43,394 bases of DNA, taken from contig JBOGWD010000229.1 in NCBI GenBank assembly GCA_050693275.1, forward strand, positions 1 through 43,394, read 5' to 3'. Position numbers and translations under genes: made by a program. Below, piece by piece: positions 5,833 through 28,744 of this stretch. Numbering within the stretch: the stretch's first letter is position 1; each line of letters starts with the position of its first letter. Under the pieces are notes generated by a model. The model was not told where the DNA came from, ran no database searches, and saw only the letters and a program-made list of their open reading frames with translations. This DNA comes from Actinomycetota bacterium (lineage in GTDB: Bacteria; Actinomycetota; UBA4738; CALAEC01).

Positions 5833-6708
5833 GTGTTCGGGCTCACGCGGGCGAACCTCCGGCACCTCCTGGGGATGTTCCGTCTCGGGACTCGCCCGGC
5901 GGTGACGGTCTACGAGAGCCTCGGCACCGACTTCTTCCTGGCTCCGGCACCCGGCTGGCTGAACCTTGGATGGTGGGAGGGGGAGGGGAGCGAGGAGGAG
6001 GCTCCGGTCGCCCCGGGGCGGCTGGTCGAGATCCTGGCCGACCCTCTTCCTCGGGGCGGCGCGATCCTCGATGTCGCGAACGGCCTCGGCGTCCAGGACC
6101 CCGTGATCGCACGGGTGACAGCGCCCCGCCTGCTCGCTGCGGTCAACCTCACCGAGTTCCAGCTCCGGGCCGGGCGGGAGCGTCTCTCGTCGGCGGAGGC
6201 CCTCCCCGTCCTCGCCGACGCGATCCGCCTCCCCTTCGGCGACGCCTCCTTCGACGGGTTGATCTGTGTGGAGGCGGCGTTCCACTTCCCGTCTCGCGCG
6301 GGCTTCTTCGCGGAGGCGCTCCGGGTGCTTCGGCCGGGCGGGGTCCTGTCGATGTCGGACGTGACCGTCGAGCGGCGGCCCCGGACGCTTCAGGACGCCG
6401 CGGCCGGGCTCCTGCTGCTGCGGATATGGGGGATGCGCACCAGGCAGCTCGAGAGCGCCGGACGGATCGCCGGGTTGGCGGAGGCGGCGGGGCTCACCGA
6501 CGTCCGCGTCGAGCTGTGCGCCGCCCGCACGATCGACCCTGCCCTCCGGCTGGCCCGCGCCCGGCTCGCCTCGCCGCGGGGCCACCCGAGGGCCCATGTC
6601 TGGGGGGCCCGGGTGGGCATCCGTCAGATCGAGCGACTGCGGGCGCGTGGCTTCATCCAGTACGCGCTCCTCACGGCCCGAGCCCCGGCCGTCGGTTCTT
6701 CGGCCTGA
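5833..6708 (+). CDS. Class I SAM-dependent methyltransferase (Methyltransf_11-like)
   Basis: LNLGWW motif. Motif I is ILDVANGLG. Post-I/II region is LPFGDASFDGLICVEAAFHF...LRPGGVL. Confidence 0.75.
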   Translation: MFGLTRANLRHLLGMFRLGTRPAVTVYESLGTDFFLAPAPGWLNLGWWEGEGSEEEAPVAPGRLVEILADPLPRGGAILDVANGLGVQDPVIARVTAPRLLAAVNLTEFQLRAGRERLSSAEALPVLADAIRLPFGDASFDGLICVEAAFHFPSRAGFFAEALRVLRPGGVLSMSDVTVERRPRTLQDAAAGLLLLRIWGMRTRQLESAGRIAGLAEAAGLTDVRVELCAARTIDPALRLARARLASPRGHPRAHVWGARVGIRQIERLRARGFIQYALLTARAPAVGSSA

Positions 6709-6834: not shown

Positions 6835-7338
6835 ATGGCCGCGTGGGCGCTGGAGCGGGCCCGGAACCCATCGATCCTTCGGCTCCATACGACGGTCGAG
6901 CTGACCCGGGCCACCATCGAGACCTGCCCTCCGGCTCGGGCGCCGTGGCCGGTGGACCGGCTCCCGTCAATCCCGGGTCTTCGGTCGATGGACCTTCACC
7001 GCTACCGGGCCCGGCTGAACCTCGCTCCGGGAACCGACCCGGCGCACGCTGAGGTCAGGATCCGGGAGATCCTGTCTCCGGAGCTGGGACCGCCCGTGGA
7101 CCTGCCGGCCGAGCCCCCGCCCCGAACGTTCGCCGTGCGGTACCGGGGTCCCCGGGCCGTTGCGGAGAGCCCGGTGATGGCTCGGTCACAGCCGGTGCTC
7201 CGAGCGGCGTTCCTCGCGATCGGAGTGGCCGAGGCCATCCTGACCGGGGGCGTGGTGCAGGTCCGTCTGGGGCGACTGTTCGCCTGGGATCAGGCTGAGG
7301 AAGCGGTCCGGAAAGTCCTCCGATCATTTGCGCCCTGA
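6835..7338 (+). CDS. Hypothetical protein with no recognisable domain
   Basis: An ATG is preceded by GAAGGAGCTGAGGAG. Codons are GC3-rich across 167 codons. I recognise no family motifs. Confidence 0.45.
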   Translation: MAAWALERARNPSILRLHTTVELTRATIETCPPARAPWPVDRLPSIPGLRSMDLHRYRARLNLAPGTDPAHAEVRIREILSPELGPPVDLPAEPPPRTFAVRYRGPRAVAESPVMARSQPVLRAAFLAIGVAEAILTGGVVQVRLGRLFAWDQAEEAVRKVLRSFAP

Positions 7339-7418
7339 ACCGCTCAGGCCCCGTCCCTGTCGGCCGATTCTCCTGACTCGCGGGCCGAGGCAGGGGAGTC
7401 ACCTGAGCGATGCACCCT

Positions 7419-8228
7419 TCAGGTGCCTCCCGCCTCCTCCGTCCGGCGTGCCTGCGGCTGCCCGTCGCCCCTGCCAAGGGCCGCGCCCAGGGCCCCGAGC
7501 GTGTCCATCGGCAACGGGAAGATCACCGTCGTCGTCCGGTCGGAGGCGATCTCGGACATCGTCGACAGCACCCGCAGCTGCATGGCGGCGGGTTCCTCCC
7601 GGAGCTGCCGCCCCGCCCGGGACAGGGTTTCCGCAGCCTCGAATTCCCCCTTGGCGTGGATCACCTTCGCTCGCCGGTCCCGCTCCGCCACGGCCTGGCG
7701 GGCCATGGCCCGGCGCATGGCCTCCGGTAGCTCCACGTCCTTCACCTCGACCAGCGTGACCTTCACTCCCCAGGGGTTGGTGAGATCGTCGATGATCTTC
7801 TGAAGGCGGCGGTTGATCTCGTCCCGGGACACCAGCAGCTCGTCCAAGTCGGCCTGGCCGATGACGCTCCGCAGGGTGGTCTGGGCAACCTGGGACGTGC
7901 CGAAGAAGTAATCCTGGATGGCCACTGTGGCCCTGATGGGATCCACCACGTTGAAGTAGCTGACCGCGTTCACCCGGACGGTCACGTTGTCCCTGGTGAT
8001 GATGTCCTGGCTGGCGACGTCGTGGGTCACCGTCTGGAGGTTCACCTTCACCATCCGGTCGATGACGGGGATGATGAAGAACAGACCGGGACCCTTCGCC
8101 CCGATCACCCGCCCCAGCCGGAAGATGACTCCGCGCTCGTATTCCTTCACGATCCGGATCGCCGAGATGGCGATGATCGCGATGAGCACCACCGCGGCCC
8201 CGATGCCGTAAAGCGTCGCCTGGCTCAT
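7419..8228 (-). CDS. SPFH/band 7 (stomatin-like, slipin) membrane scaffold protein
   Basis: N-terminal TM helix, then the SPFH core (IVKEYERGVIFRLGR...TRDNVTVRVNAVSYF...AMARQAVAERDRRAKVI). The start overlaps the NfeD stop (ATGA, 8225-8228). Confidence 0.9.
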   Translation of the reverse strand: MSQATLYGIGAAVVLIAIIAISAIRIVKEYERGVIFRLGRVIGAKGPGLFFIIPVIDRMVKVNLQTVTHDVASQDIITRDNVTVRVNAVSYFNVVDPIRATVAIQDYFFGTSQVAQTTLRSVIGQADLDELLVSRDEINRRLQKIIDDLTNPWGVKVTLVEVKDVELPEAMRRAMARQAVAERDRRAKVIHAKGEFEAAETLSRAGRQLREEPAAMQLRVLSTMSEIASDRTTTVIFPLPMDTLGALGAALGRGDGQPQARRTEEAGGT

Positions 8229-9640
8229 GGCTCTCCTTTCTCCTCTATCTCCTCTTCCGGTGCCTCCTGGTCCTCCACGATGAGGTCAAGGCCCTCGACG
8301 TCGACCACGCGCACGGTGGCTTCGTCCCGCAGCTGCTCGCCCCTGGTCCTCACGTTCCACCACGCCCCCTCCACCATCGCCTGGCCGGTGGTGCCGCTGG
8401 CCGAACTCACCACGGCGACCGAGCCCAGGAGCCCGCCCGCCCCGGTGGTCGGGGCCAGCCGCCGGGTCCGCCATGCGAGGCGACCGGCCAGCACCGTCGC
8501 CCCACCGACCACGATGGCCACGGGGATCAGCACCTCGGGATCCACCCCCACCCGGCCGCGGAACAGGAACAGCCCGCCCAGGACCAGGGACGCGGTGCCT
8601 CCCGCGGCGCCGACCCCGACGCCGGGGGTGAAGACCTCCACCCCGAACAGGATCGCCGCGAGAACGAGGAGCAGTCCTCCCAGGGCGTTCACGGGGAGTA
8701 CGGCCAGGGCGAACAGCGCCAGCAGGATCAGGATCACGCCCACGATCGCCGAGCCCCCGAAGCCCGGATTCGCCAGCTCGTAGATGATGGCCAGGGTCCC
8801 CAGGGACATGAACAGGAAGGCCAGGTTGGGGTCGGCCAGCCACTGCAGGACCGACCGGAACGCACCCAGCTCATAGGGGACGATCTGGGCCTCGCTGGTC
8901 TCGAGGGTCAGCCGGGTCCCGGTCGCTAGGGTCACCGTCTCCCCGTCGATGGCCTCGAGCAGGGCGGCCCGGTCCGGGGCGAGAAGGTCCACCACGCCGA
9001 TCCGCTCCGCCTCTTCGGCGGTGACCGACCGACCCTCGCGCACGGCCTCGACGGCGAACTCCGTGTCACGGCCACGAGCCCGGGCCACGGACTCTGCGTA
9101 GGCCGCGGCGTCCTCGATGATCTTCCGCTGGACGTCCCCGCCTTCGAGGTCCACCGGGGTGGCCGCCCCGATCGCGGTTCCCGGGGCCATCGCCGCGATG
9201 TGCGCGGACATCGTGATGAGAGCACCGGCCGAGGCGGCCCGCGCCCCGGAGGGGGCCACGTGGACCACCACGGGGACGTCGGCGCCGAGGAAGGCCTGGA
9301 TGATGTCTCGCATCGAGGCGTCGAGCCCGCCGGGGGTATCGAGCTCGATCAGGAATACGTGGTGGGCCTCCTCCTCCGCGAGGGCCACCCCTTCCCCGAT
9401 GTGGTCGGCGATCACCGGGGTGATCACGCCGTCCACCTGGGTGACCAGCACCGTTCGCGCCTGGGCCCGGGCGCCGGTGGCCGAGGCCGCCAGCCAGAGC
9501 GCGAGAGGGAGGATGAGCATGCCCAGCACGGTCCGCCGCCCCGGATGGGGGGCGAAGGGCAACGTCCGCGGCAAGCGAAGCATCAGATGCCCGTCCCCGT
9601 GGCTGGGGGCGTCCTCCAACTCCAACCTACCTCGCGGCAC
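8225..9640 (-). CDS. NfeD-family membrane-bound ClpP-class serine protease with C-terminal OB (NfeD) domain
   Basis: ClpP/S49-like N-domain (VVHVAPSGARAASAGALI), 4-5 TM helices, and a C-terminal OB fold (GQAMVEGAWWNVRTRGE). The true start may be internal at ATG 9583 or 9520, giving a signal-like MLRLPRT.../MLILPLALW. Confidence 0.85.
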   Translation of the reverse strand: MPRGRLELEDAPSHGDGHLMLRLPRTLPFAPHPGRRTVLGMLILPLALWLAASATGARAQARTVLVTQVDGVITPVIADHIGEGVALAEEEAHHVFLIELDTPGGLDASMRDIIQAFLGADVPVVVHVAPSGARAASAGALITMSAHIAAMAPGTAIGAATPVDLEGGDVQRKIIEDAAAYAESVARARGRDTEFAVEAVREGRSVTAEEAERIGVVDLLAPDRAALLEAIDGETVTLATGTRLTLETSEAQIVPYELGAFRSVLQWLADPNLAFLFMSLGTLAIIYELANPGFGGSAIVGVILILLALFALAVLPVNALGGLLLVLAAILFGVEVFTPGVGVGAAGGTASLVLGGLFLFRGRVGVDPEVLIPVAIVVGGATVLAGRLAWRTRRLAPTTGAGGLLGSVAVVSSASGTTGQAMVEGAWWNVRTRGEQLRDEATVRVVDVEGLDLIVEDQEAPEEEIEEKGEP

Positions 9641-9691
9641 CGGCGGGCGCTGGCGCGGTTCCCGGAGGGCTGAGCGCGGTCGGCGGGCGAT

Positions 9692-10753
9692 TCAAGTCTC
9701 GCGACCGGCGGGGTCCCTCCTGGTGAGCAACGCCCCGTAGAGCGTGAGCCCCGGTCCGAAGGCCACGCAGACCACGTGATCGCCCTCCCGGAGCGGTTGA
9801 CGCTCCAGGAGCCGCTGCAGCACGAGCAGCACCGTCGGTGAGGAGCAATTGCCGAAGTCGCGGAGGACCGACCTGGAGGGCTCGAGCTCGGCCTCGCCGA
9901 GCCCCAACGGCGCGGCAACGGCCTCGAGGATCCTCGGGCCCCCGGGATGGACCGCCCACCCGGCGACCTCCTCCGGAGACAGGCCGTGCCGGGCCAGCAG
10001 GGAGTCGACCAGAGGGCCGGCGTGGCGCTCGAGAACCTCGGGGATCTCCCGGCCCAGGCCCATCCGGAAGCCCCGGTCGGTGACGTCCCACTTCATGAGT
10101 CCCGCGCTCTGAGGGTCCGTGCGGGCGGCGACGTCGACGACCTCGAGCCCCGGCCCTCCCGGTCGAACCGCGACGGCCGCGGCAGCGTCGGAGAACAGCG
10201 AGTGAGCGATGATCTGATCGACCTCGTGGTCCTGGTCCTGGACGTGGAGACTGCACAGCTCGAGGCACAGGAGGAGACCCGTCTTCCTCCGGGCGGTGGC
10301 CGCATCCGCCAGGGTGGCCAGCGCGGGGAGAGCCGCGTAGCAGCCCATGTGGCCGACATGGAGACGCTGCGTATCCTCGGCCAGACCGAGCTCCCGCGCG
10401 AGCAGGATGTCCAAGCCCGGTGTGGCGTACCCCGTGCACGTGACCACGGTGAGGGCGCCCACCTCCCGGGGCGCCAGCCGTGCCTGGTCAATGCACGCGC
10501 TGAGCGCTTCGCGGCCGAGCGGGACGGCCTCCTCCAGGAACCGCTCCATCCTGGCCGCCGTTCCCCATCCCCGAACGTCCTCCTTCCAGGGGATGGCCAC
10601 ACCGTGTCGAGTGGTGACGCCCGACCGCCGCCACAGCCGCTCCGCCAGGCGGTCACCTCGATACTGCTCGGCGAAGAACCCCTCCCACACCTCCTCCTGG
10701 GAGACCGCGGTGGGGACCGCCGAGCCGAGCCCGGCGATCACGGCCGCTACCAC
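9692..10753 (-). CDS. Type III polyketide synthase (chalcone/stilbene synthase superfamily), about 353 aa
   Basis: Cys-His-Asn triad: GHMGCYAA (Cys codon 10340-10342), WAVHPGGP, FGNCSSP. I chose GTG 10753, which overlaps the upstream stop (10747-10749), rather than the track start 10975, whose 74-aa extension is R/G/P-rich. Confidence 0.9.
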   Translation of the reverse strand: MVAAVIAGLGSAVPTAVSQEEVWEGFFAEQYRGDRLAERLWRRSGVTTRHGVAIPWKEDVRGWGTAARMERFLEEAVPLGREALSACIDQARLAPREVGALTVVTCTGYATPGLDILLARELGLAEDTQRLHVGHMGCYAALPALATLADAATARRKTGLLLCLELCSLHVQDQDHEVDQIIAHSLFSDAAAAVAVRPGGPGLEVVDVAARTDPQSAGLMKWDVTDRGFRMGLGREIPEVLERHAGPLVDSLLARHGLSPEEVAGWAVHPGGPRILEAVAAPLGLGEAELEPSRSVLRDFGNCSSPTVLLVLQRLLERQPLREGDHVVCVAFGPGLTLYGALLTRRDPAGRET

Positions 10754-11934
10754 GGTTTCACCCCCTCCGCTCCCTCGACCCCCAGGGCCATCGCCCCCAG
10801 ATAGTCCCCGGACACGTCGCTGGACGGCGGCATGATCGCCGCGCTTCGGGCGTCCCTGAGGATCCGCTCCAGGGGGAGTCCCCGCCGAAGGGCGCCGAGC
10901 CCGCACGCCTCGGTCATGCTTGCCGCAACGCTCATGGCCACGTCTCCTGCCAGGAGCTTGGCCCGGTACGTCCACCGGTTCGTCTCTGGGTCACCGGGCC
11001 GCAGGTCGACCAGTCGGGCGGCTCGCTCCAGTGTCAACCGGGCGGCCTGGACCTCGGCCTCCGCTCGGCCGACCCGCTGCCGCACGGCGGCCAGTCGGGC
11101 CAGCCCTCCGCGCTCGTCGCCCACGCGCCGCCCTCGCAGGTACGACACGGCCTCTCGGACGGCGGCCTCGGCCAATCCCACGTACACCGCGGCGTATGAG
11201 GCGACGAGCCACTGGGGCATCCCGTAGGCGAGCGGGAGCACCAGGCCCTCCACCCCTCCCAGGAGCCCGTCATCCGAGACCCAGACATCGAGCTCCAGGC
11301 CGTTGCTGGCCGTGGCTCGCATCCCCAGCGGATCCCACGACCCGTCGACCCGGAGCCCCTCTCCGGCCGGAACCAGGAAGTAGGAGATGACCGGTGCGTC
11401 ATCGGAGGAGCCGGCCCGGCGGGCGGCCACGAGGTAGGCGTCGAGATGCCCCGCCCCCGAGCAGAAGCTCTTCGTCCCTCGGATCCGATAGCCCGCGCCC
11501 TCGGGCTCGTACGTGGATCGCAGCGCCGAGAGGCGGGAGCCGGCCTGTGGTTCGGTGATGGCCACCCCGTACATGGCCCCCTCCGCGGCGGCACGGAGGA
11601 TCCGATCGCGGGACTCGAAGAACACCTCCGTCGTGCCGAAGCCCCTGGCCACCTCATCGGGGATCGACGCCAGCCCGCCGGTGACCGACGCGTGCATGTT
11701 GAAGATCAGCGCGGTCGAGGCGTTGCCTCCGGCGAGCGCCACGGCCACCCGCACGTAGTCCTCGAACCCGGCCCCCATCCCCCCGAGCCGGGCCGGGACC
11801 AGAAGGCCCAGGAGGCCGTCCTCCCGCAGTTCCTCGACGTCGCGTTCGGGGAACGCGGCCTCCTCGTCGTATCGGGCCGCCCGGGAGGCCATCCGCTCGG
11901 CGAGCCGCTCCGCCTTCCCCAGGGCGTCCGTCAC
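10747..11934 (-). CDS. Acyl-CoA dehydrogenase-fold flavoprotein (possibly an ACAD-fold oxygenase), about 395 aa
   Basis: ACAD N/M/C domain pattern (LGLLVPARLGGMG...AITEPQAGS...GTKSFCSGAGH...). The C-terminal RDAR...IMPPSSDV replaces the canonical IYEGT catalytic-base motif. GTG 11934 overlaps the methyltransferase stop (GTGA). Confidence 0.8.
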   Translation of the reverse strand: MTDALGKAERLAERMASRAARYDEEAAFPERDVEELREDGLLGLLVPARLGGMGAGFEDYVRVAVALAGGNASTALIFNMHASVTGGLASIPDEVARGFGTTEVFFESRDRILRAAAEGAMYGVAITEPQAGSRLSALRSTYEPEGAGYRIRGTKSFCSGAGHLDAYLVAARRAGSSDDAPVISYFLVPAGEGLRVDGSWDPLGMRATASNGLELDVWVSDDGLLGGVEGLVLPLAYGMPQWLVASYAAVYVGLAEAAVREAVSYLRGRRVGDERGGLARLAAVRQRVGRAEAEVQAARLTLERAARLVDLRPGDPETNRWTYRAKLLAGDVAMSVAASMTEACGLGALRRGLPLERILRDARSAAIMPPSSDVSGDYLGAMALGVEGAEGVKPW

Positions 11935-12638
11935 GAGGTCTTCCTTCCCACTCCCTGGTAGACCGATGCCAGCGACCGGGTGGGCAGCATGCGGACCGAC
12001 CCACGTCGCCCGAGGAGGAACGCCAGGTAGTCGCGGAGGGACGGCCGCAGGCCGCGGACCCGGACACGGAGTCCATGCCGGCCGAGGAGGCGGGCGATGC
12101 GGCGGGGCCGAACGAACAGCGAGGGATCGTGGATCCGGCTGGGCGGCCCGCCCGGGACTCGCTCCCCGACGACCACCAGCGAGAGCCGGGACCACATCGT
12201 GTCGTTGATGGTGTCGAAGACCAGGACACCGTCCGGGCGGAGGACCCGAGCGATCTCCGCGATGACCCGGGGCAGGTCGGGGACGTGCTCGAAGAGCTCT
12301 CCGGCCACCACGACGTCCGCGGTGCGGTCACGAAGGGGGAGGGCCGCCGCATCGGCTCGCACTGGGACCACGCCATGACTCGCGGCGACGCGGAGCGACG
12401 GCGCCGAGAGGTCGACCCCGACATGACGGTACTGGGCGAGGTGGGTGGCCAGGAGACCACCGCCGCAGCCGATGTCCACGAGCGTGAGTCCCCGGCGTGC
12501 CGGAGCGGGGATCAGGTCAGCCCGAGCGTCCGCCAACCAGTGGAGGGCGGCCAAGGACCCCTTCGGGTTCCACCACTCGCCGGCCAGCCGGTCGTACTGC
12601 CTGGGATCGTTCCGCGCGGGCATCCTCACTCGTGGCAT
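11931..12638 (-). CDS. UbiG-like class I SAM-dependent methyltransferase
   Basis: N-terminal WWNPKGSLAALH motif, as in UbiG-type enzymes. Motif I is LVDIGCGGGLL, followed by ELFEHVPD...LRPDGVL. A GGAGGG Shine-Dalgarno lies 6 nt upstream of ATG 12638. Confidence 0.8.
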   Translation of the reverse strand: MPRVRMPARNDPRQYDRLAGEWWNPKGSLAALHWLADARADLIPAPARRGLTLVDIGCGGGLLATHLAQYRHVGVDLSAPSLRVAASHGVVPVRADAAALPLRDRTADVVVAGELFEHVPDLPRVIAEIARVLRPDGVLVFDTINDTMWSRLSLVVVGERVPGGPPSRIHDPSLFVRPRRIARLLGRHGLRVRVRGLRPSLRDYLAFLLGRRGSVRMLPTRSLASVYQGVGRKTS

Positions 12639-12701
12639 CCGCTGCCCTCCGCATACCCTGGCACGTTTCTCGCCTCACCGGAGACGCGATCCGCCTCCGA
12701 G

Positions 12702-13754
12702 TCAGGAGGTTCGCAGCACGACGAGTCGGTCGGCTCCCGACTCGGCTCCCCAGATCTCGCCGGTGCGGCCCAGCAGTTGCCGTACCTCCGCGCCCGGGGT
12801 GGGGAACCGGAAGACCCGAAAGCGTTCCGCGTTCGGATCGAACCGAACCAACGCGTTTGCGCCGAAGTCGGTGACCCAGACGACGTCCTCGTCGTCGACG
12901 AACACCGCGTACGGCTGGGGGTCGCTCCCCGGCAGCCGCCACTCGCGCCACGTTCGACGTGCGGGATCGTAGCGCGCCAGCTTCCCAGCGAACCACTCGG
13001 TGATCCACAGCCGGCCGAGGGCATCGCTCCAGATGCGCCGGGCGCCGCCGCCCGGCGTCGGCACGTCCACCAACGCGAGGCGGCCATCGGAGGAGCGGAT
13101 CCGGCCGATGTAGCTCCCCGCCAGGGAGGCCAGCCACACCGTGCCGTCGGGGGTGACCGTGATCCCGTAGGGGCCCTCGCCCCGCGGCGCGCCAAAGACC
13201 TCGACCCTCCTCGTCTCCGGATCGACCCGTCCGTAGACACCGCTCTGGCCGGTGAACCAGAGGATCCCGCCACCGTCGACGGCCGCCGTGTTCAGGTTGG
13301 CGTACCCGGGCTCCGGCAGCGGGAACCGTGCCACCTCGAGACTCTGCCGGTCGACCCGCACGATCGCGTTGAGCCCGCCATCGGTGATCCAGGGGTCCCC
13401 GTCGGGGCCGACGATGACGCCGTGCGGAGTCGATCCGGGGCCGAGCGCGACGTGACGGGTCCTCCGGGTGGCCGGGTCGAGCACGCCGAGCTCGCCCGAT
13501 CCCTGCGCCGTGTACCAGACACGGCCGTCGGGAGCCGGAGCGACGTCATGAGGGTGGGAACCGACGGGGACGGGATACTCCCGGAACGAGGGCCCGATCC
13601 TCGGCGTCGTGGTGTCGGTCGGCGAGGTCGTCGCTTCCGGCGTCACCACCGTGGGGGCGTCTCGGGACCGCGGGGGAGGGGGCGAGGAGTTGCAGGCGAC
13701 GGTGGCCAGCAGGATGCAGGCGGCCATCACTCGCCTTGGGCCGCGGACGGGCAT
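12702..13754 (-). CDS. Vgb (virginiamycin B lyase)-like beta-propeller protein, predicted lipoprotein
   Basis: Repeated blades of the form GPxGIxxGPDGxxWxTxxxxxxIxRxDP. The N-terminus MPVRGPRRVMAACILLATVAC carries a lipobox. ATG 13754 (or 13727) is chosen over the track start 14057. Confidence 0.7.
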   Translation of the reverse strand: MPVRGPRRVMAACILLATVACNSSPPPPRSRDAPTVVTPEATTSPTDTTTPRIGPSFREYPVPVGSHPHDVAPAPDGRVWYTAQGSGELGVLDPATRRTRHVALGPGSTPHGVIVGPDGDPWITDGGLNAIVRVDRQSLEVARFPLPEPGYANLNTAAVDGGGILWFTGQSGVYGRVDPETRRVEVFGAPRGEGPYGITVTPDGTVWLASLAGSYIGRIRSSDGRLALVDVPTPGGGARRIWSDALGRLWITEWFAGKLARYDPARRTWREWRLPGSDPQPYAVFVDDEDVVWVTDFGANALVRFDPNAERFRVFRFPTPGAEVRQLLGRTGEIWGAESGADRLVVLRTS

Positions 13755-13853
13755 GGTCTCGTCAGTGTGCCATCCCGTGCACACGAGGGGGCGATCCGCG
13801 CAGGCACCGCGGTCCCCGGCCGGCCGGTGCGGTTCACCCGGGGGGCCTCGTCG

Positions 13854-13859
13854 TAGAAT
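13854..13859 (+). promoter_or_regulatory. Candidate -10 hexamer TAGAAT for a (near-)leaderless holA
   Basis: A TANNNT hexamer ends 10 nt before GTG 13870. No Shine-Dalgarno lies in between. Confidence 0.35.
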
Positions 13860-13869
13860 CCGCGCGACC

Positions 13870-14841
13870 GTGAGCTCCGACGCCGCGCCCGTCCTCGTGC
13901 TGTGGGGCGACAGCTCCTTCCTCCTCCGGCGCGCCGCGATGGAGGCTTTCGGCGAGGTCCACCCCGTCGAGCTGGACGGGTCCGACTGGAGCCCCGGCTC
14001 CACGGCCGACCTGGCCACGCCGTCACTGTTCGGCGAGCAGCGGGGGCTGATGATCACCGCGGCCCAGGCGCTGCCTCGGGACGGCCTGGCCGAGATGGCC
14101 CGCTACGCCTCCGCGCCCGCCCCCGGCGCGAGGCTCGTGTTGGCCTTCGAGGTCGGAGCCCGGGCCAAGGGACCGCCCCGGGCCGCCCTGAAGGCCCTGG
14201 GCGACGCCGTGGAGGTTCGCCGGGTGGCCCTGGAGCGCCGGGACCTCCCCGAGTGGGTGCGCGGCCGGGCGGAGGCCCGGGGGATCCCCGCCACCCCGCA
14301 GGGCATCCAGACGCTGATCCAGACCCTCGGCGAGGATCCCGGCGTCCTCGATCAGGCCGTGGAGCAGCTGGCGGGCTCCCACCCCGGAGACGGCGTGATC
14401 CCCCAGACGGTGACGGCCCAGTTCCGGGGCCTGGGAGACCGCCGGATCTGGGAGCTGTGCGACGCGGCGTTCGGGGGCGACGTCCCCACGGCCATGCGGG
14501 CCCTGGTGGGGATGCTCGATGCGGGGGAGGAGCCGCTGGTGCTCCTCGGCGGGATCGCCTCACGGCTGCGCGATCTGATCCGGGTCCGATCGCTCCCCCC
14601 GAGGACCCCCCTGGCCCAGGTGGCCCGGCAGGCCGGGTTGCGGTTCGACTGGCAGGCCAGACGCTATCGGGACCAGGCCCGGCGGTTCACCCCGGACGGG
14701 CTGGCCCGGCTCCATGCCGAGCTCGTCGGGGCCGACCAGGCCCTGAAGCAGGGGGGCAGCGGCGAGACGGTGCTGACGACGGTGGTCAGCAGGATCGCCG
14801 TGCAGGAGGAGCGGCGGCCGGCACCGGCGGGTCGCCGCTGA
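13870..14841 (+). CDS. holA: DNA polymerase III delta subunit
   Basis: About 323 aa. The N-terminus PVLVLWGDSSFLLRRA and the conserved delta-subunit layout are present. The position next to rpsT is conserved in bacteria. The upstream part of track ORF 13609 is an R/G-rich extension. Confidence 0.8.
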   Translation: MSSDAAPVLVLWGDSSFLLRRAAMEAFGEVHPVELDGSDWSPGSTADLATPSLFGEQRGLMITAAQALPRDGLAEMARYASAPAPGARLVLAFEVGARAKGPPRAALKALGDAVEVRRVALERRDLPEWVRGRAEARGIPATPQGIQTLIQTLGEDPGVLDQAVEQLAGSHPGDGVIPQTVTAQFRGLGDRRIWELCDAAFGGDVPTAMRALVGMLDAGEEPLVLLGGIASRLRDLIRVRSLPPRTPLAQVARQAGLRFDWQARRYRDQARRFTPDGLARLHAELVGADQALKQGGSGETVLTTVVSRIAVQEERRPAPAGRR

Positions 14842-26021: not shown

Positions 26022-27544
26022 TGCCGAAGAAGAGACGCGACGAGCTGGAGCGAGCCGACAGCCCCGCCTCCAGCGCCCTGGCCGAGCGGACGCCGTTCGT
26101 GTACGCGACGGCCCCCGAGTCCACCGAGATCGTCCGCATCGAGGACCGGTACGGCCTGTTCATCGGGGGCGAGTTCGTCGAGCCGAAGAGCGGGACGTGG
26201 TTCGACACGATCAACCCGGCCACCGAGGAGAAGCTCGCCGAGGTCGCCGAGGCCGGCCCGGAGGACGTCGACGTGGCCGTGACCACGGCCCGGGGATCCT
26301 GGGAGCGGTACTGGCGAGACCTCCCGGGCCGGGAGCGGGCCAAGTACCTGTACCGCATCGCCCGACAGATCCAGGAGCGGAGCCGGGAGTTCGCGGTGCT
26401 GGAGACGATGGACGGCGGGAAGCCGATCAAGGAGTCCCGCGATGTCGACGTGCCGCTGGCGGCAGCGCACTTCTTCTACTACGCGGGATGGGCCGACAAG
26501 CTCGAGTTCGCCTTCCCCGGCCGCCTCCCCAGGCCGCTGGGCGTGGCCGGACAGGTGATCCCGTGGAACTTCCCGCTCCTCATGGCGGCGTGGAAGCTCG
26601 CCCCGGCCCTGGCCACCGGGAACGCGGTGGTGCTGAAGCCGGCCGAGACCACGCCGCTCACCTCGCTGCTGCTGGCCGAGGTGATCCGGGAGGCGGACCT
26701 GCCGCCCGGCGTGGTGAACGTGGTAACCGGGGCGGGGGAGACCGGGTCGAACGTGGTCACGCACGAGGACGTCGACAAGGTCGCCTTCACCGGGTCCACC
26801 GAGGTGGGCAAGGTCATCCAGCGGGCCATCGCCGGCACCAGGAAGCACCTCACGCTCGAGCTGGGCGGGAAGGCCGCCAACATCGTGTTCGAGGACGCCG
26901 CCCTGGACCAGGCCGTCGAGGGCATCGTCAACGGGATCTACTTCAACCAGGGCCACGTGTGCTGCGCCGGCTCCCGGCTGTTCGTCCAGGAGTCGGTGTT
27001 CGAGCCCCTGCTGGAGCGTCTCAAGGACCGGCTGGCCACCCTCCGGGTGGGCGATCCGCTGGACAAGAACACCGACATCGGGGCCATCAACTCGAAGCAG
27101 CAGCTCCGCAAGATCGAGGAGCTGGTCGAGTCCGGCGTCGAGGAGGGAGCGGAGATCTACCAGCCGGCCTGCGACCTCCCCGCCCGCGGCTACTGGTTCC
27201 GGCCCACGCTGTTCACCGGCGTCGCCCAGTCCCACCGCATCGCCCGGGAGGAGATCTTCGGGCCGGTGTTGTCCGTGCTCACGTTCCGAACGCCCGAGGA
27301 GGCCCTGGAGAAGGCCAACAACACGCCGTACGGGTTGTCCGCTGGGGTGTGGACGGAGAAGGGCTCCCGGATCCTGTGGATGACCTCCCGGCTCAGGGCC
27401 GGCGTGATCTGGGCGAACACGTTCAACCGGTTCGATCCCTCCAGCCCCTTCGGCGGCTACAAGGAGTCGGGGTTCGGGCGCGAGGGCGGGCTGCACGGGC
27501 TGGAGCCGTATCTCGAGTTCGAGGGGAACGGCCATGCCGGCTGA
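26021..27544 (+). CDS. NAD(P)-dependent aldehyde dehydrogenase, full length (507 aa)
   Basis: ELGGK catalytic Glu motif, NQGHVCCAGSR catalytic Cys motif, and FTGSTEVG. ATG 26021 overlaps the deoC stop (TGATG). Confidence 0.9.
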   Translation: MPKKRRDELERADSPASSALAERTPFVYATAPESTEIVRIEDRYGLFIGGEFVEPKSGTWFDTINPATEEKLAEVAEAGPEDVDVAVTTARGSWERYWRDLPGRERAKYLYRIARQIQERSREFAVLETMDGGKPIKESRDVDVPLAAAHFFYYAGWADKLEFAFPGRLPRPLGVAGQVIPWNFPLLMAAWKLAPALATGNAVVLKPAETTPLTSLLLAEVIREADLPPGVVNVVTGAGETGSNVVTHEDVDKVAFTGSTEVGKVIQRAIAGTRKHLTLELGGKAANIVFEDAALDQAVEGIVNGIYFNQGHVCCAGSRLFVQESVFEPLLERLKDRLATLRVGDPLDKNTDIGAINSKQQLRKIEELVESGVEEGAEIYQPACDLPARGYWFRPTLFTGVAQSHRIAREEIFGPVLSVLTFRTPEEALEKANNTPYGLSAGVWTEKGSRILWMTSRLRAGVIWANTFNRFDPSSPFGGYKESGFGREGGLHGLEPYLEFEGNGHAG

Positions 27545-28406
27545 GCGCGAACGCCTCTCGGTCCGGAAGACCTACAAGCTGTACGTCGGCGGCGACTTCC
27601 CCCGGTCGGAGTCCGGACGGTCCTATCCGGTGTCGGATCGGAACGGGGAGGTGGTGGCCCGGGCCGCCCGGGCCACCCGGAAGGATCTCCGGGAGGCGGT
27701 CCGGGCCGCCCGCGGGGCCTTCCCCGGCTGGTCCGGGGCCACCCCCTACAACCGGGGCCAGGTCCTGTACCGGGTGGCCGAGCTGATGGAGGGCCGGCGC
27801 GACCAGTTCGTCGAGGAGATCGCCCGGGCCGGCGCCACGGATCCTGAGGCCGGGGTGGACGCCTCCATCGACCGATGGGTGTGGTACGCGGGCTGGGCGG
27901 ACAAGATTCACCACGTCCTCGGGTCCGTGAACCCCGTGGCCGCGCCGTACTTCAACTTCACCATCCCCGAGCCGACCGGCGTGGTCGGGATCGTGGCCCC
28001 GCCGGACGCGCCCCTCCTCGGACTGGTGTCGCGCTTGGCCCCGGCCGTGATCTCGGGGAACTGCACGGTGGTGCTGGCCAGCGAGCCGTCGCCGCTCCCG
28101 GCCATCACGCTGTCCGAGGTGCTGGCCACGTCCGACGTCCCCGGAGGGGTCATCAACATCCTCACCGGGTACACCGCCGAGCTCGTGCCGTGGCTGGCCG
28201 GGCACATGGACGTCAACGCCATCGACATCACGGGCATCCCGGAGGAGCAGCGGGCCGAGGTGGAGCGGCTCGGCGCGGAGAACGTGAAGCGGGTCATCCG
28301 GGCGGAGGGTCCGGAAGCCGAGTGGCTCGACGACGCCGCCCAGAGCCCGTACGCGGTCACGGCGTTCATGGAGATGAAGACCGTCTGGCACCCCATGGGC
28401 GCGTGA
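27534..28406 (+). CDS. Aldehyde dehydrogenase-like protein lacking the catalytic domain (290 aa)
   Basis: The ALDH N-terminal/NAD-binding region is recognisable (KLYVGGDF..., WSGATPYNRGQVLYR, GVVGIVAPPDAPL). ELGG is replaced by RAEG and there is no catalytic Cys segment. The C-terminal strand FMEMKTVW is retained. Confidence 0.7.
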   Translation: MPAERERLSVRKTYKLYVGGDFPRSESGRSYPVSDRNGEVVARAARATRKDLREAVRAARGAFPGWSGATPYNRGQVLYRVAELMEGRRDQFVEEIARAGATDPEAGVDASIDRWVWYAGWADKIHHVLGSVNPVAAPYFNFTIPEPTGVVGIVAPPDAPLLGLVSRLAPAVISGNCTVVLASEPSPLPAITLSEVLATSDVPGGVINILTGYTAELVPWLAGHMDVNAIDITGIPEEQRAEVERLGAENVKRVIRAEGPEAEWLDDAAQSPYAVTAFMEMKTVWHPMGA

Positions 28407-28744
28407 GCGACGAGACCAAGCGACTCCATCCCCTCTCCCAGATCGCCCGGTTCATCGGGCGGAGCGGCAAGCGCATCGCGGTCACCGTCCTCGGGTTCGC
28501 CCTGCTCATCGCGGGCCTGGTGATGATGGTTACGCCGGGGCCCGGCGTCCTGGTCATCGTGACCGGGCTGGCCATCCTGGCCACCGAGTGGGCCTGGGCC
28601 GAACGGGCCCTGGACCGGGCCAAGGCCGGGGGGAAGGTGGTCCTGGACCAGGCCACGGCCTCGCCTCTCCGTATCGCGCTCTCGGTGGTGGTCACGCTCG
28701 GCGGCATCGCCGCGGTCCTGGTCTACTTCCTCGTCATCCGGTAG
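28403..28744 (+). CDS. PGPGW-motif small membrane protein
   Basis: Two TM hairpins with MVTPGPGVLVIVTGLAILATEWAWA. GTG 28403 overlaps the upstream stop (GTGA). Confidence 0.6.
   Translation: MSDETKRLHPLSQIARFIGRSGKRIAVTVLGFALLIAGLVMMVTPGPGVLVIVTGLAILATEWAWAERALDRAKAGGKVVLDQATASPLRIALSVVVTLGGIAAVLVYFLVIR

Follow-up and report, generated by a model that had tools for sequence, protein, structure and literature searches.

What is a type III polyketide synthase (PKS) doing among the housekeeping genes of an uncultured actinobacterium, in series with a methyltransferase and an enzyme that has the fold of an acyl-CoA dehydrogenase (ACAD)? The three genes lie between positions 12638 and 9692 on contig JBOGWD010000229.1 (assembly GCA_050693275.1), and 'the window' is used below for the whole 43 kb stretch that was analysed. 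A sequence-only reading of this DNA had proposed a phenolic-lipid or polyketide-quinone pathway and had not recognised the trio as a described cluster type. We find that the trio is a form of a cassette known from earlier cloning work in actinomycetes and conserved across the phylum, whose products are hydroxylated and methylated alkyl-phenol lipids of the membrane. The operon is probably a phenolic-lipid operon of the Agq type, named after the agqABCD cluster of Actinoplanes missouriensis, from which the prenyltransferase is missing. Its ACAD-fold protein is most likely a flavin-dependent ring hydroxylase, similar to AgqB, and not a desaturase of starter units, as judged from its active-site residues and closest relatives.

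Operon structure and coding evidence

The three open reading frames (ORFs) follow one another on the minus strand in the order methyltransferase, ACAD-fold gene, type III PKS, with overlapping stop and start codons. The first encodes a UbiG-like class I S-adenosylmethionine (SAM)-dependent methyltransferase of 235 aa and runs from an ATG at 12638 to 11931. A GGAGGG motif on the same strand (12645 to 12650), 6 nt 5' of this ATG, resembles a ribosome-binding site, a function suggested by its sequence alone. The TGA stop of the methyltransferase gene and the GTG with which the ACAD-fold gene begins (11934 to 10747, 395 aa) share the tetranucleotide GTGA (11934 to 11931), and the TAG stop of the ACAD-fold gene overlaps the GTG start of the PKS gene (10753 to 9692, 353 aa) in GTGGTAG (10753 to 10747); both overlaps are of a kind that couples translation. 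All three ORFs were taken as coding because the GC content of their third codon positions (GC3) is 0.86-0.89, which is typical of coding sequence here (the GC content of the window is 72%). A scan of positions 7000 to 14200 gave no promoters and three weak terminator-like sites, all within genes.

Identical overlaps of 4 nt and 7 nt recur in L081 and L082, two closely related loci from metagenomes, whose ACAD-fold proteins are 82% and 72% identical to that of the window. The arrangement is therefore conserved and not due to chance. Since the flanks of the trio in both relatives are entirely different from those in the window, the trio is a self-contained cassette. The three genes are one real, translationally coupled operon, and in this the earlier reading, which had also assigned the three gene products correctly as judged by their Pfam domains, holds.

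Distribution and synteny across Actinomycetota

A genome scan, in which each species was represented by one genome, returned 80 loci with PKSs that are 52-63% identical to the window enzyme. The loci come from Egibacteraceae, Euzebyales, Nitriliruptorales, Thermoleophilia/Solirubrobacterales, Acidimicrobiales, Frankiales and 'Mycobacteriales' metagenome-assembled genomes, Geodermatophilaceae, Nanopelagicales, Pseudonocardiales and Micromonosporaceae. A methyltransferase homologue (50-64% identity) adjoins the PKS in 71 of them, and in 31, including Micromonospora and Rugosimonospora, an ACAD-fold homologue (55-65% identity) lies between the two; it is not present in the other 40 loci that have both methyltransferase and PKS. 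These counts rely on tblastn, because the crude GC3-based gene caller missed some genes. The methyltransferase is lacking from nine loci, and in six of these no more than about 350 nt separate the PKS from the end of the contig. The methyltransferase and the PKS thus make up the conserved core of the cassette (71/80), to which the ACAD-fold gene is often, but not necessarily, added (31/80); the trio, whose co-conservation had been raised in the sequence-only reading, is not strictly kept together.

In a neighbour-joining tree of the PKSs, loci with the trio and loci with the pair are intermixed within taxa; the trio is present in Micromonospora and Rugosimonospora and the pair in Dactylosporangium, and both occur in Egibacteraceae. 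This pattern suggests that the ACAD-fold gene has been lost repeatedly.

Within the class Actinomycetes the cassette occupies a fixed slot, which reads disA, radA, UbiA (divergent), methyltransferase, ACAD-fold gene (where present), PKS, carD, ispD, ispF. This layout is seen in Micromonosporaceae, Frankiales and Mycobacteriales (example loci L004, L008, L014, L049, L079; L084), and an independent gene call of Salinispora arenicola gives the same arrangement. The location in the window is different, between comEC and holA.

Four loci of Patulibacter / Solirubrobacterales (L006, L007, L027 and L053) have the methyltransferase downstream of the PKS and convergent with it, not upstream in the same direction; the pair is here rearranged yet kept together. 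Several loci of Nitriliruptoria / Solirubrobacterales without the ACAD-fold gene have a short-chain dehydrogenase/reductase (SDR) gene of the adh_short family close to the methyltransferase-PKS pair: directly before the pair in L024 and L078, at a distance of one gene in L003, and just after the pair in L032. Genes for an SDR, an amidase, an additional methyltransferase and a thioredoxin-reductase-like protein recur near the cassette outside Actinomycetes, but inconsistently, and were rejected as partners.

The type III polyketide synthase

The PKS has both Chal_sti_synt_N and Chal_sti_synt_C domains, together with the motifs GHMGCYAA, WAVHPGGP and FGNCSSP. The complete Cys/His/Asn triad that had been read from these motifs stands as C138, H269 and N302, and is invariant across 13 PKS homologues. 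Its nearest solved relatives are the long-chain enzymes Pks11 (156.8 bits) and Pks18 of Mycobacterium tuberculosis, and the tetrahydroxynaphthalene synthase 1u0m scores lower than these (129.7 bits). Against the curated DpgA model the window PKS reaches 192.6 bits, where the cutoff is 425. Neither this model nor the closest similarities place it with the DpgA/RppA-type enzymes, and in the neighbour-joining tree it falls inside the family of cassette-borne PKSs; the RppA-type assignment that the earlier reading had named as a possible counter-argument thus seems not to apply. Identity to the cassette PKSs of Salinispora and Micromonospora is 54-56% (Salinispora 54%). Metagenomes of uncultured Actinomycetota contain many PKS homologues, which carry the JGI label 'alkylresorcinol/alkylpyrone synthase'. 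We propose that the window PKS is an alkylresorcinol synthase like AgqA and LosA.

The called ORFs of the window include no acyl carrier protein (ACP), ketosynthase/acyltransferase (KS/AT), thioesterase, acyl-CoA ligase, UbiA or flavin reductase. The first four had already been reported as lacking beside the PKS, and the expectation that priming would draw on the cellular acyl-CoA pool is supported.

The ACAD-fold flavoprotein

The second protein of the operon contains Acyl-CoA_dh_N, Acyl-CoA_dh_M and Acyl-CoA_dh_1, the full three-domain ACAD fold, and an AlphaFold model (predicted local distance difference test score, pLDDT, 83.9; predicted template modelling score, pTM, 0.86) also has this fold. 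Its best sequence matches among solved structures are 5z8t and 5gj7 (105 bits), the former titled 'Flavin-containing monooxygenase' in the Foldseek listing. Behind these come true ACADs mixed with the nitrososynthases KijD3, ORF36 and DnmZ, as well as DszC/TdsC and MsuC. Among NCBIfam models the Rv1679/FadE16 'acyl-CoA dehydrogenase' family matches best, with 184 bits where the cutoff is 600, and the Micromonospora and Salinispora orthologues are named 'Dibenzothiophene monooxygenase' in UniRef.

The active site separates the protein from bona fide ACADs, whose fold it has but whose catalytic glutamate base it lacks. In HMMER alignments to the butyryl-CoA dehydrogenases 5ol2 (C. difficile) and 4n5f, 'IYEGT' stands opposite 'IMPPS' in the window protein, so that P369 occupies the position of the catalytic Glu of the YEGT motif, which is Glu376 in medium-chain acyl-CoA dehydrogenase (MCAD). 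This proline is invariant in 31 orthologues, including those of Micromonospora and Salinispora ('HPAT'). The alternative base position of isovaleryl-CoA and long-chain acyl-CoA dehydrogenases (IVD/LCAD), which we take to be that of the LDLER motif, is filled by a Leu. Because the catalytic Glu is replaced by Pro and the closest solved relative is a monooxygenase, the protein is read as a ring hydroxylase.

An ACAD fold without the catalytic base, and closest relatives that are monooxygenases, are the features of group D flavin-dependent monooxygenases (DszC/TdsC, MsuC, KijD3, ORF36, DnmZ and 5z8t). The window protein shares with them the fold (TM-score 0.80-0.84) and the lack of the ACAD catalytic Glu, and an FCSGAG-type motif in the middle domain is common to both. 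It differs in that identity is only 22-30%, that no partner reductase is encoded near the trio, and that its presumed substrate is a phenolic lipid, whereas theirs are a thiophene, a sulfinate or an amino sugar.

The UbiG-like methyltransferase

The methyltransferase matches Methyltransf_11 (2.5e-22) and Methyltransf_23 in Pfam and carries the SAM motif LVDIGCGGG. Its nearest solved relative is E. coli UbiG (4kdc; 68 bits, 6e-18), and it scores 107.3 bits against the NCBIfam UbiG model TIGR01983, a marginal pass of the 102.95 cutoff by a protein whose context is a type III PKS operon. Both enzymes would O-methylate a hydroxylated benzene ring with a lipid tail; UbiG, however, is tied to ubi genes, and the window enzyme to a type III PKS. 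Actinomycetota have menaquinone and are not known to use ubiquinone. Given such a host and the type III PKS context, the window enzyme would have a paralogous function and not be UbiG itself, and it is proposed here to be an AgqC-type O-methyltransferase acting on a hydroxylated alkylresorcinol.

Relation to known gene clusters

A cassette of the same composition has been described in Micromonospora endolithica. The gene table of BAC I7 lists DisA, RadA, a hypothetical protein, a UbiA family prenyltransferase, a putative methyltransferase, an acyl-CoA dehydrogenase, the type III PKS losA, two further hypothetical proteins, CarD, IspD and IspF (PMC7587189). With this run of methyltransferase, 'acyl-CoA dehydrogenase' and PKS genes, preceded by UbiA, on record, the suggestion that the window trio might be an undescribed cluster type has to be given up; the sequence-only reading had itself named a product already assigned to the trio, in MIBiG or in the literature, as grounds for refutation, and this is essentially the situation found. 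When losA was placed under an inserted promoter, C21-C23 alkylresorcinols (loseolamycins) were produced from host fatty acids in Streptomyces albus, which establishes alkylresorcinol formation by a PKS of the same cassette (PMC7587189). In Phytohabitans, another member of the Micromonosporaceae, the PKS has been called an orthologue of agqA, and three adjacent locus tags orthologues of agqB-agqD (PMC7692728). AgqA makes alkylresorcinols which are then hydroxylated and prenylated, and the function of the resulting lipids has been called enigmatic (PMC10896814).

antiSMASH pairs the Micromonospora type III PKS cluster with the agq cluster of A. missouriensis. The agqABCD genes reportedly give alkyl-O-dihydrogeranyl-methoxyhydroquinones, and in the same study (Awakawa et al. 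2011) AgqB is said to be a monooxygenase, with methyl transfer ascribed to AgqC and prenyl transfer to the UbiA-like AgqD. The literature searched on the agq cluster contained no statement of the fold of AgqB. As the genes adjacent to the PKS encode an ACAD-fold protein, a methyltransferase and UbiA, AgqB would by elimination be the ACAD-fold gene, an assignment that we infer from gene order in related genera together with this elimination, and not from direct alignment.

The window is like the agqABCD and losA loci in having the methyltransferase, ACAD-fold and type III PKS genes in the same order, with 54-56% identity to the Salinispora proteins (56% for the ACAD-fold protein). The ACAD-fold proteins of the Micromonosporaceae loci have the same Glu-less active site, and the chemistry expected from the window genes is also that of agqABCD, namely an alkylresorcinol followed by ring hydroxylation and O-methylation. 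Of the Agq-type constituents, the PKS, a monooxygenase-type gene next to it and a SAM methyltransferase are thus present, and the UbiA-like prenyltransferase is not. No called ORF of the window has a Pfam match to UbiA; when the UbiA proteins encoded at the loci were compared with the window by tblastn, they matched nothing but antisense ORFs across the methyltransferase gene, which are artefacts, and UbiA does not adjoin the trio in L081 or L082 either. The setting also differs from the Micromonosporaceae/Frankiales cassette, which lies at radA/carD and not between comEC and holA, and the window host belongs to an uncultured, deep-branching lineage of Actinomycetota.

SrsABC of Streptomyces griseus and the mycobacterial polyketide-quinone operon MSMEG_0808-0810 follow the same logic, in which a PKS is combined with a hydroxylase and a methyltransferase. 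SrsB is a membrane methyltransferase of the isoprenylcysteine carboxyl methyltransferase (ICMT) type and SrsC a UbiH-like FAD hydroxylase. The tailoring enzymes of the window are not homologous to those of these systems, being a soluble class I UbiG-like methyltransferase of the Methyltransf_11/23 families and an ACAD-fold flavoenzyme, and the idea of SrsABC-like logic carried out with different folds was therefore well founded. In both systems the type III PKS, an alkylresorcinol synthase, gives alkyl-methoxy-quinone or hydroquinone lipids together with the hydroxylase and the methyltransferase (see PMC8730385).

Proposed pathway and alternative explanations

By orthology with LosA and AgqA, the PKS would take a long-chain fatty acyl-CoA from primary metabolism, extend it with three malonyl-CoA and cyclise the product to a 5-alkylresorcinol. 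The ACAD-fold protein, acting as a two-component (group D) monooxygenase with reduced flavin from an unlinked reductase, would then convert the resorcinol to an alkyl-hydroxyhydroquinone; this step is suggested by the missing base, the closest relatives and a position in the operon equivalent to that of AgqB. The UbiG-like methyltransferase would O-methylate one of the ring hydroxyls, giving a 6-alkyl-2-methoxyhydroquinone that could be oxidised to the benzoquinone. Translation of the three enzymes would be coupled through the overlapping stop and start codons. Because UbiA is found neither among the window ORFs nor beside the trio in L081 and L082, O-prenylation is not expected, unlike in the Actinoplanes product, and the product is likely to be a non-prenylated alkyl-methoxyhydroquinone or quinone. 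A hydroxylated and O-methylated alkyl-phenolic lipid or quinone had been anticipated as the product type in the sequence-only reading, and this expectation is supported. Directly observed are the gene structure, the synteny and the loss of the catalytic base, while the substrates on which the hydroxylase and the methyltransferase act, their regiochemistry and the final product are what we infer.

Several points weigh against this reading. The work on M. endolithica did not activate the tailoring genes and hence did not show their products (PMC7587189). The equation of AgqB with the ACAD-fold gene goes by gene order and elimination, and when the Micromonospora ACAD-fold protein was used as a query, the matches came only from Micromonospora, Salinispora and Plantactinospora, all with at least 86% identity. 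Since the window proteins are only 54-56% identical to the cassette proteins of Micromonosporaceae, chain length, regiochemistry and the choice between pyrone and resorcinol could differ. In Foldseek, monooxygenases and true ACADs match about equally well (TM-scores of 0.80-0.84 for TdsC/DszC and true ACADs alike, with TdsC as the top match), and the argument for a monooxygenase rests for this reason on the active-site residues. A partner NAD(P)H:flavin reductase is neither encoded among the called ORFs of the window nor conserved in the 80 loci. The flavin reductases of two-component monooxygenases are often unlinked.

Could the ACAD-fold enzyme be what its annotation says, an acyl-CoA or acyl-thioester dehydrogenase which supplies an alpha,beta-unsaturated or otherwise modified starter, with the methyltransferase acting on a plain alkylresorcinol or alkylpyrone? 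The complete three-domain Pfam architecture, the true ACADs that score nearly level with monooxygenases in sequence and fold searches, and the FadE16 family as best NCBIfam match (far below its cutoff) would all fit such an enzyme. An invariant proline in place of the catalytic Glu, with a leucine at the presumed IVD-type position, would not. The gene is also dispensable in 40 of the 71 methyltransferase-PKS loci, which fits tailoring better than starter supply, and LosA takes host fatty acyl starters by itself. We regard a dehydrogenase as very unlikely, and the unsaturated starter unit that had been offered as an alternative role for the ACAD is disfavoured with it. A different scaffold is somewhat easier to envisage: the PKS could make alkylpyrones that are then methylated, as in BpsAB-like systems, with the ACAD-fold enzyme oxidising elsewhere, for example on the alkyl chain. 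Pks11 and Pks18, the best solved relatives, form pyrones, the JGI label leaves room for either product, and identity to LosA-type PKSs is only about 54-56%. Yet the window PKS lies inside the cassette family on the tree, a tested member of which (LosA) yields resorcinols, as AgqA is also reported to do, and a UbiG-like phenol O-methyltransferase with a partner resembling ring hydroxylases fits the route from resorcinol to hydroquinone. Pyrone formation is unlikely.

That unrelated housekeeping genes have come to lie side by side by chance, with no common pathway, might be thought of because the rest of the window is a housekeeping region, from leuS/comEC to holA, lepA and dnaJ. This explanation has next to no chance of being right, as the gene order and the overlaps are kept in relatives with completely different flanks, and the order is kept in 31 species-level genomes from several classes. 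The preferred reading remains that of an Agq-type operon without prenyltransferase.

Significance

The window adds an uncultured, deep-branching and prenyltransferase-less example to a cassette that has been cloned, is partly characterised and is routinely flagged by antiSMASH. The 'acyl-CoA dehydrogenase' gene of these clusters should be read as a ring monooxygenase, as every orthologue examined lacks the dehydrogenase base. Nitriliruptoria, Thermoleophilia, Acidimicrobiia and Actinomycetes all have the cassette, mostly amid housekeeping genes. That the methyltransferase-PKS core is retained at housekeeping loci of several actinobacterial classes, where the monooxygenase seems to have been lost more than once, may point to a physiological role of the phenolic lipids. 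One may go further and suppose that the cassette is an ancient, mostly vertically inherited module of Actinomycetota whose product serves a core membrane or redox function and not secondary metabolism; this is speculative and, on present evidence, rather unlikely to be correct. Were it true, the product might, for instance, carry electrons in an auxiliary role, as the mycobacterial polyketide quinones do, and the UbiA-less trio would be the minimal form of the module, matching SrsABC/polyketide-quinone chemistry with unrelated tailoring enzymes.

Genomic surroundings of the operon

The window is otherwise a housekeeping stretch with leuS, comEA, comEC, a class I methyltransferase, holA, lepA, hrcA, dnaJ, rsmE, phoH, ybeY, era and recO. 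On the PKS side, an overlapping pair of minus-strand genes encoding an NfeD protein (8225 to 9640) and a Band7/SPFH protein (7419 to 8228) starts 51 nt downstream of the PKS stop. These were rejected as operon partners, since none of the 80 loci has a homologue of either and neither adjoins the trio in L081 or L082. On the other side, an ORF for a Vgb_lyase/SGL-like beta-propeller (12702 to 14057, minus strand) ends 63 nt upstream of the methyltransferase gene; it was likewise rejected, as it is not adjacent to the trio in either of these relatives. The start of this longest ORF is overlapped by about 450 nt by the start of the longest ORF for holA (13609 to 14841, plus strand). The Pfam match of the beta-propeller ORF begins only at residue 157, and for this reason the true start of the beta-propeller gene and/or of holA is probably further in.

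Two other methyltransferase genes are present in the window. One, of the Methyltransf_3 family (caffeoyl-CoA O-methyltransferase-like), lies at 1986 to 2627 on the minus strand, and the class I gene, of the Methyltransf_11 family, at 5833 to 6708 on the plus strand, directly after comEC; there is no evidence that links either to the PKS operon. Further along, a full-length aldehyde dehydrogenase (26030 to 27544, plus strand; 537 bits) is followed by a 290-aa ORF (27534 to 28406, plus strand) that covers only positions 13-233 of the 461-position Aldedh profile, and which looks like a truncated or half-size tandem copy. After this half-size ORF comes a gene for a small PGPGW membrane protein, at about 28470 to 28744.

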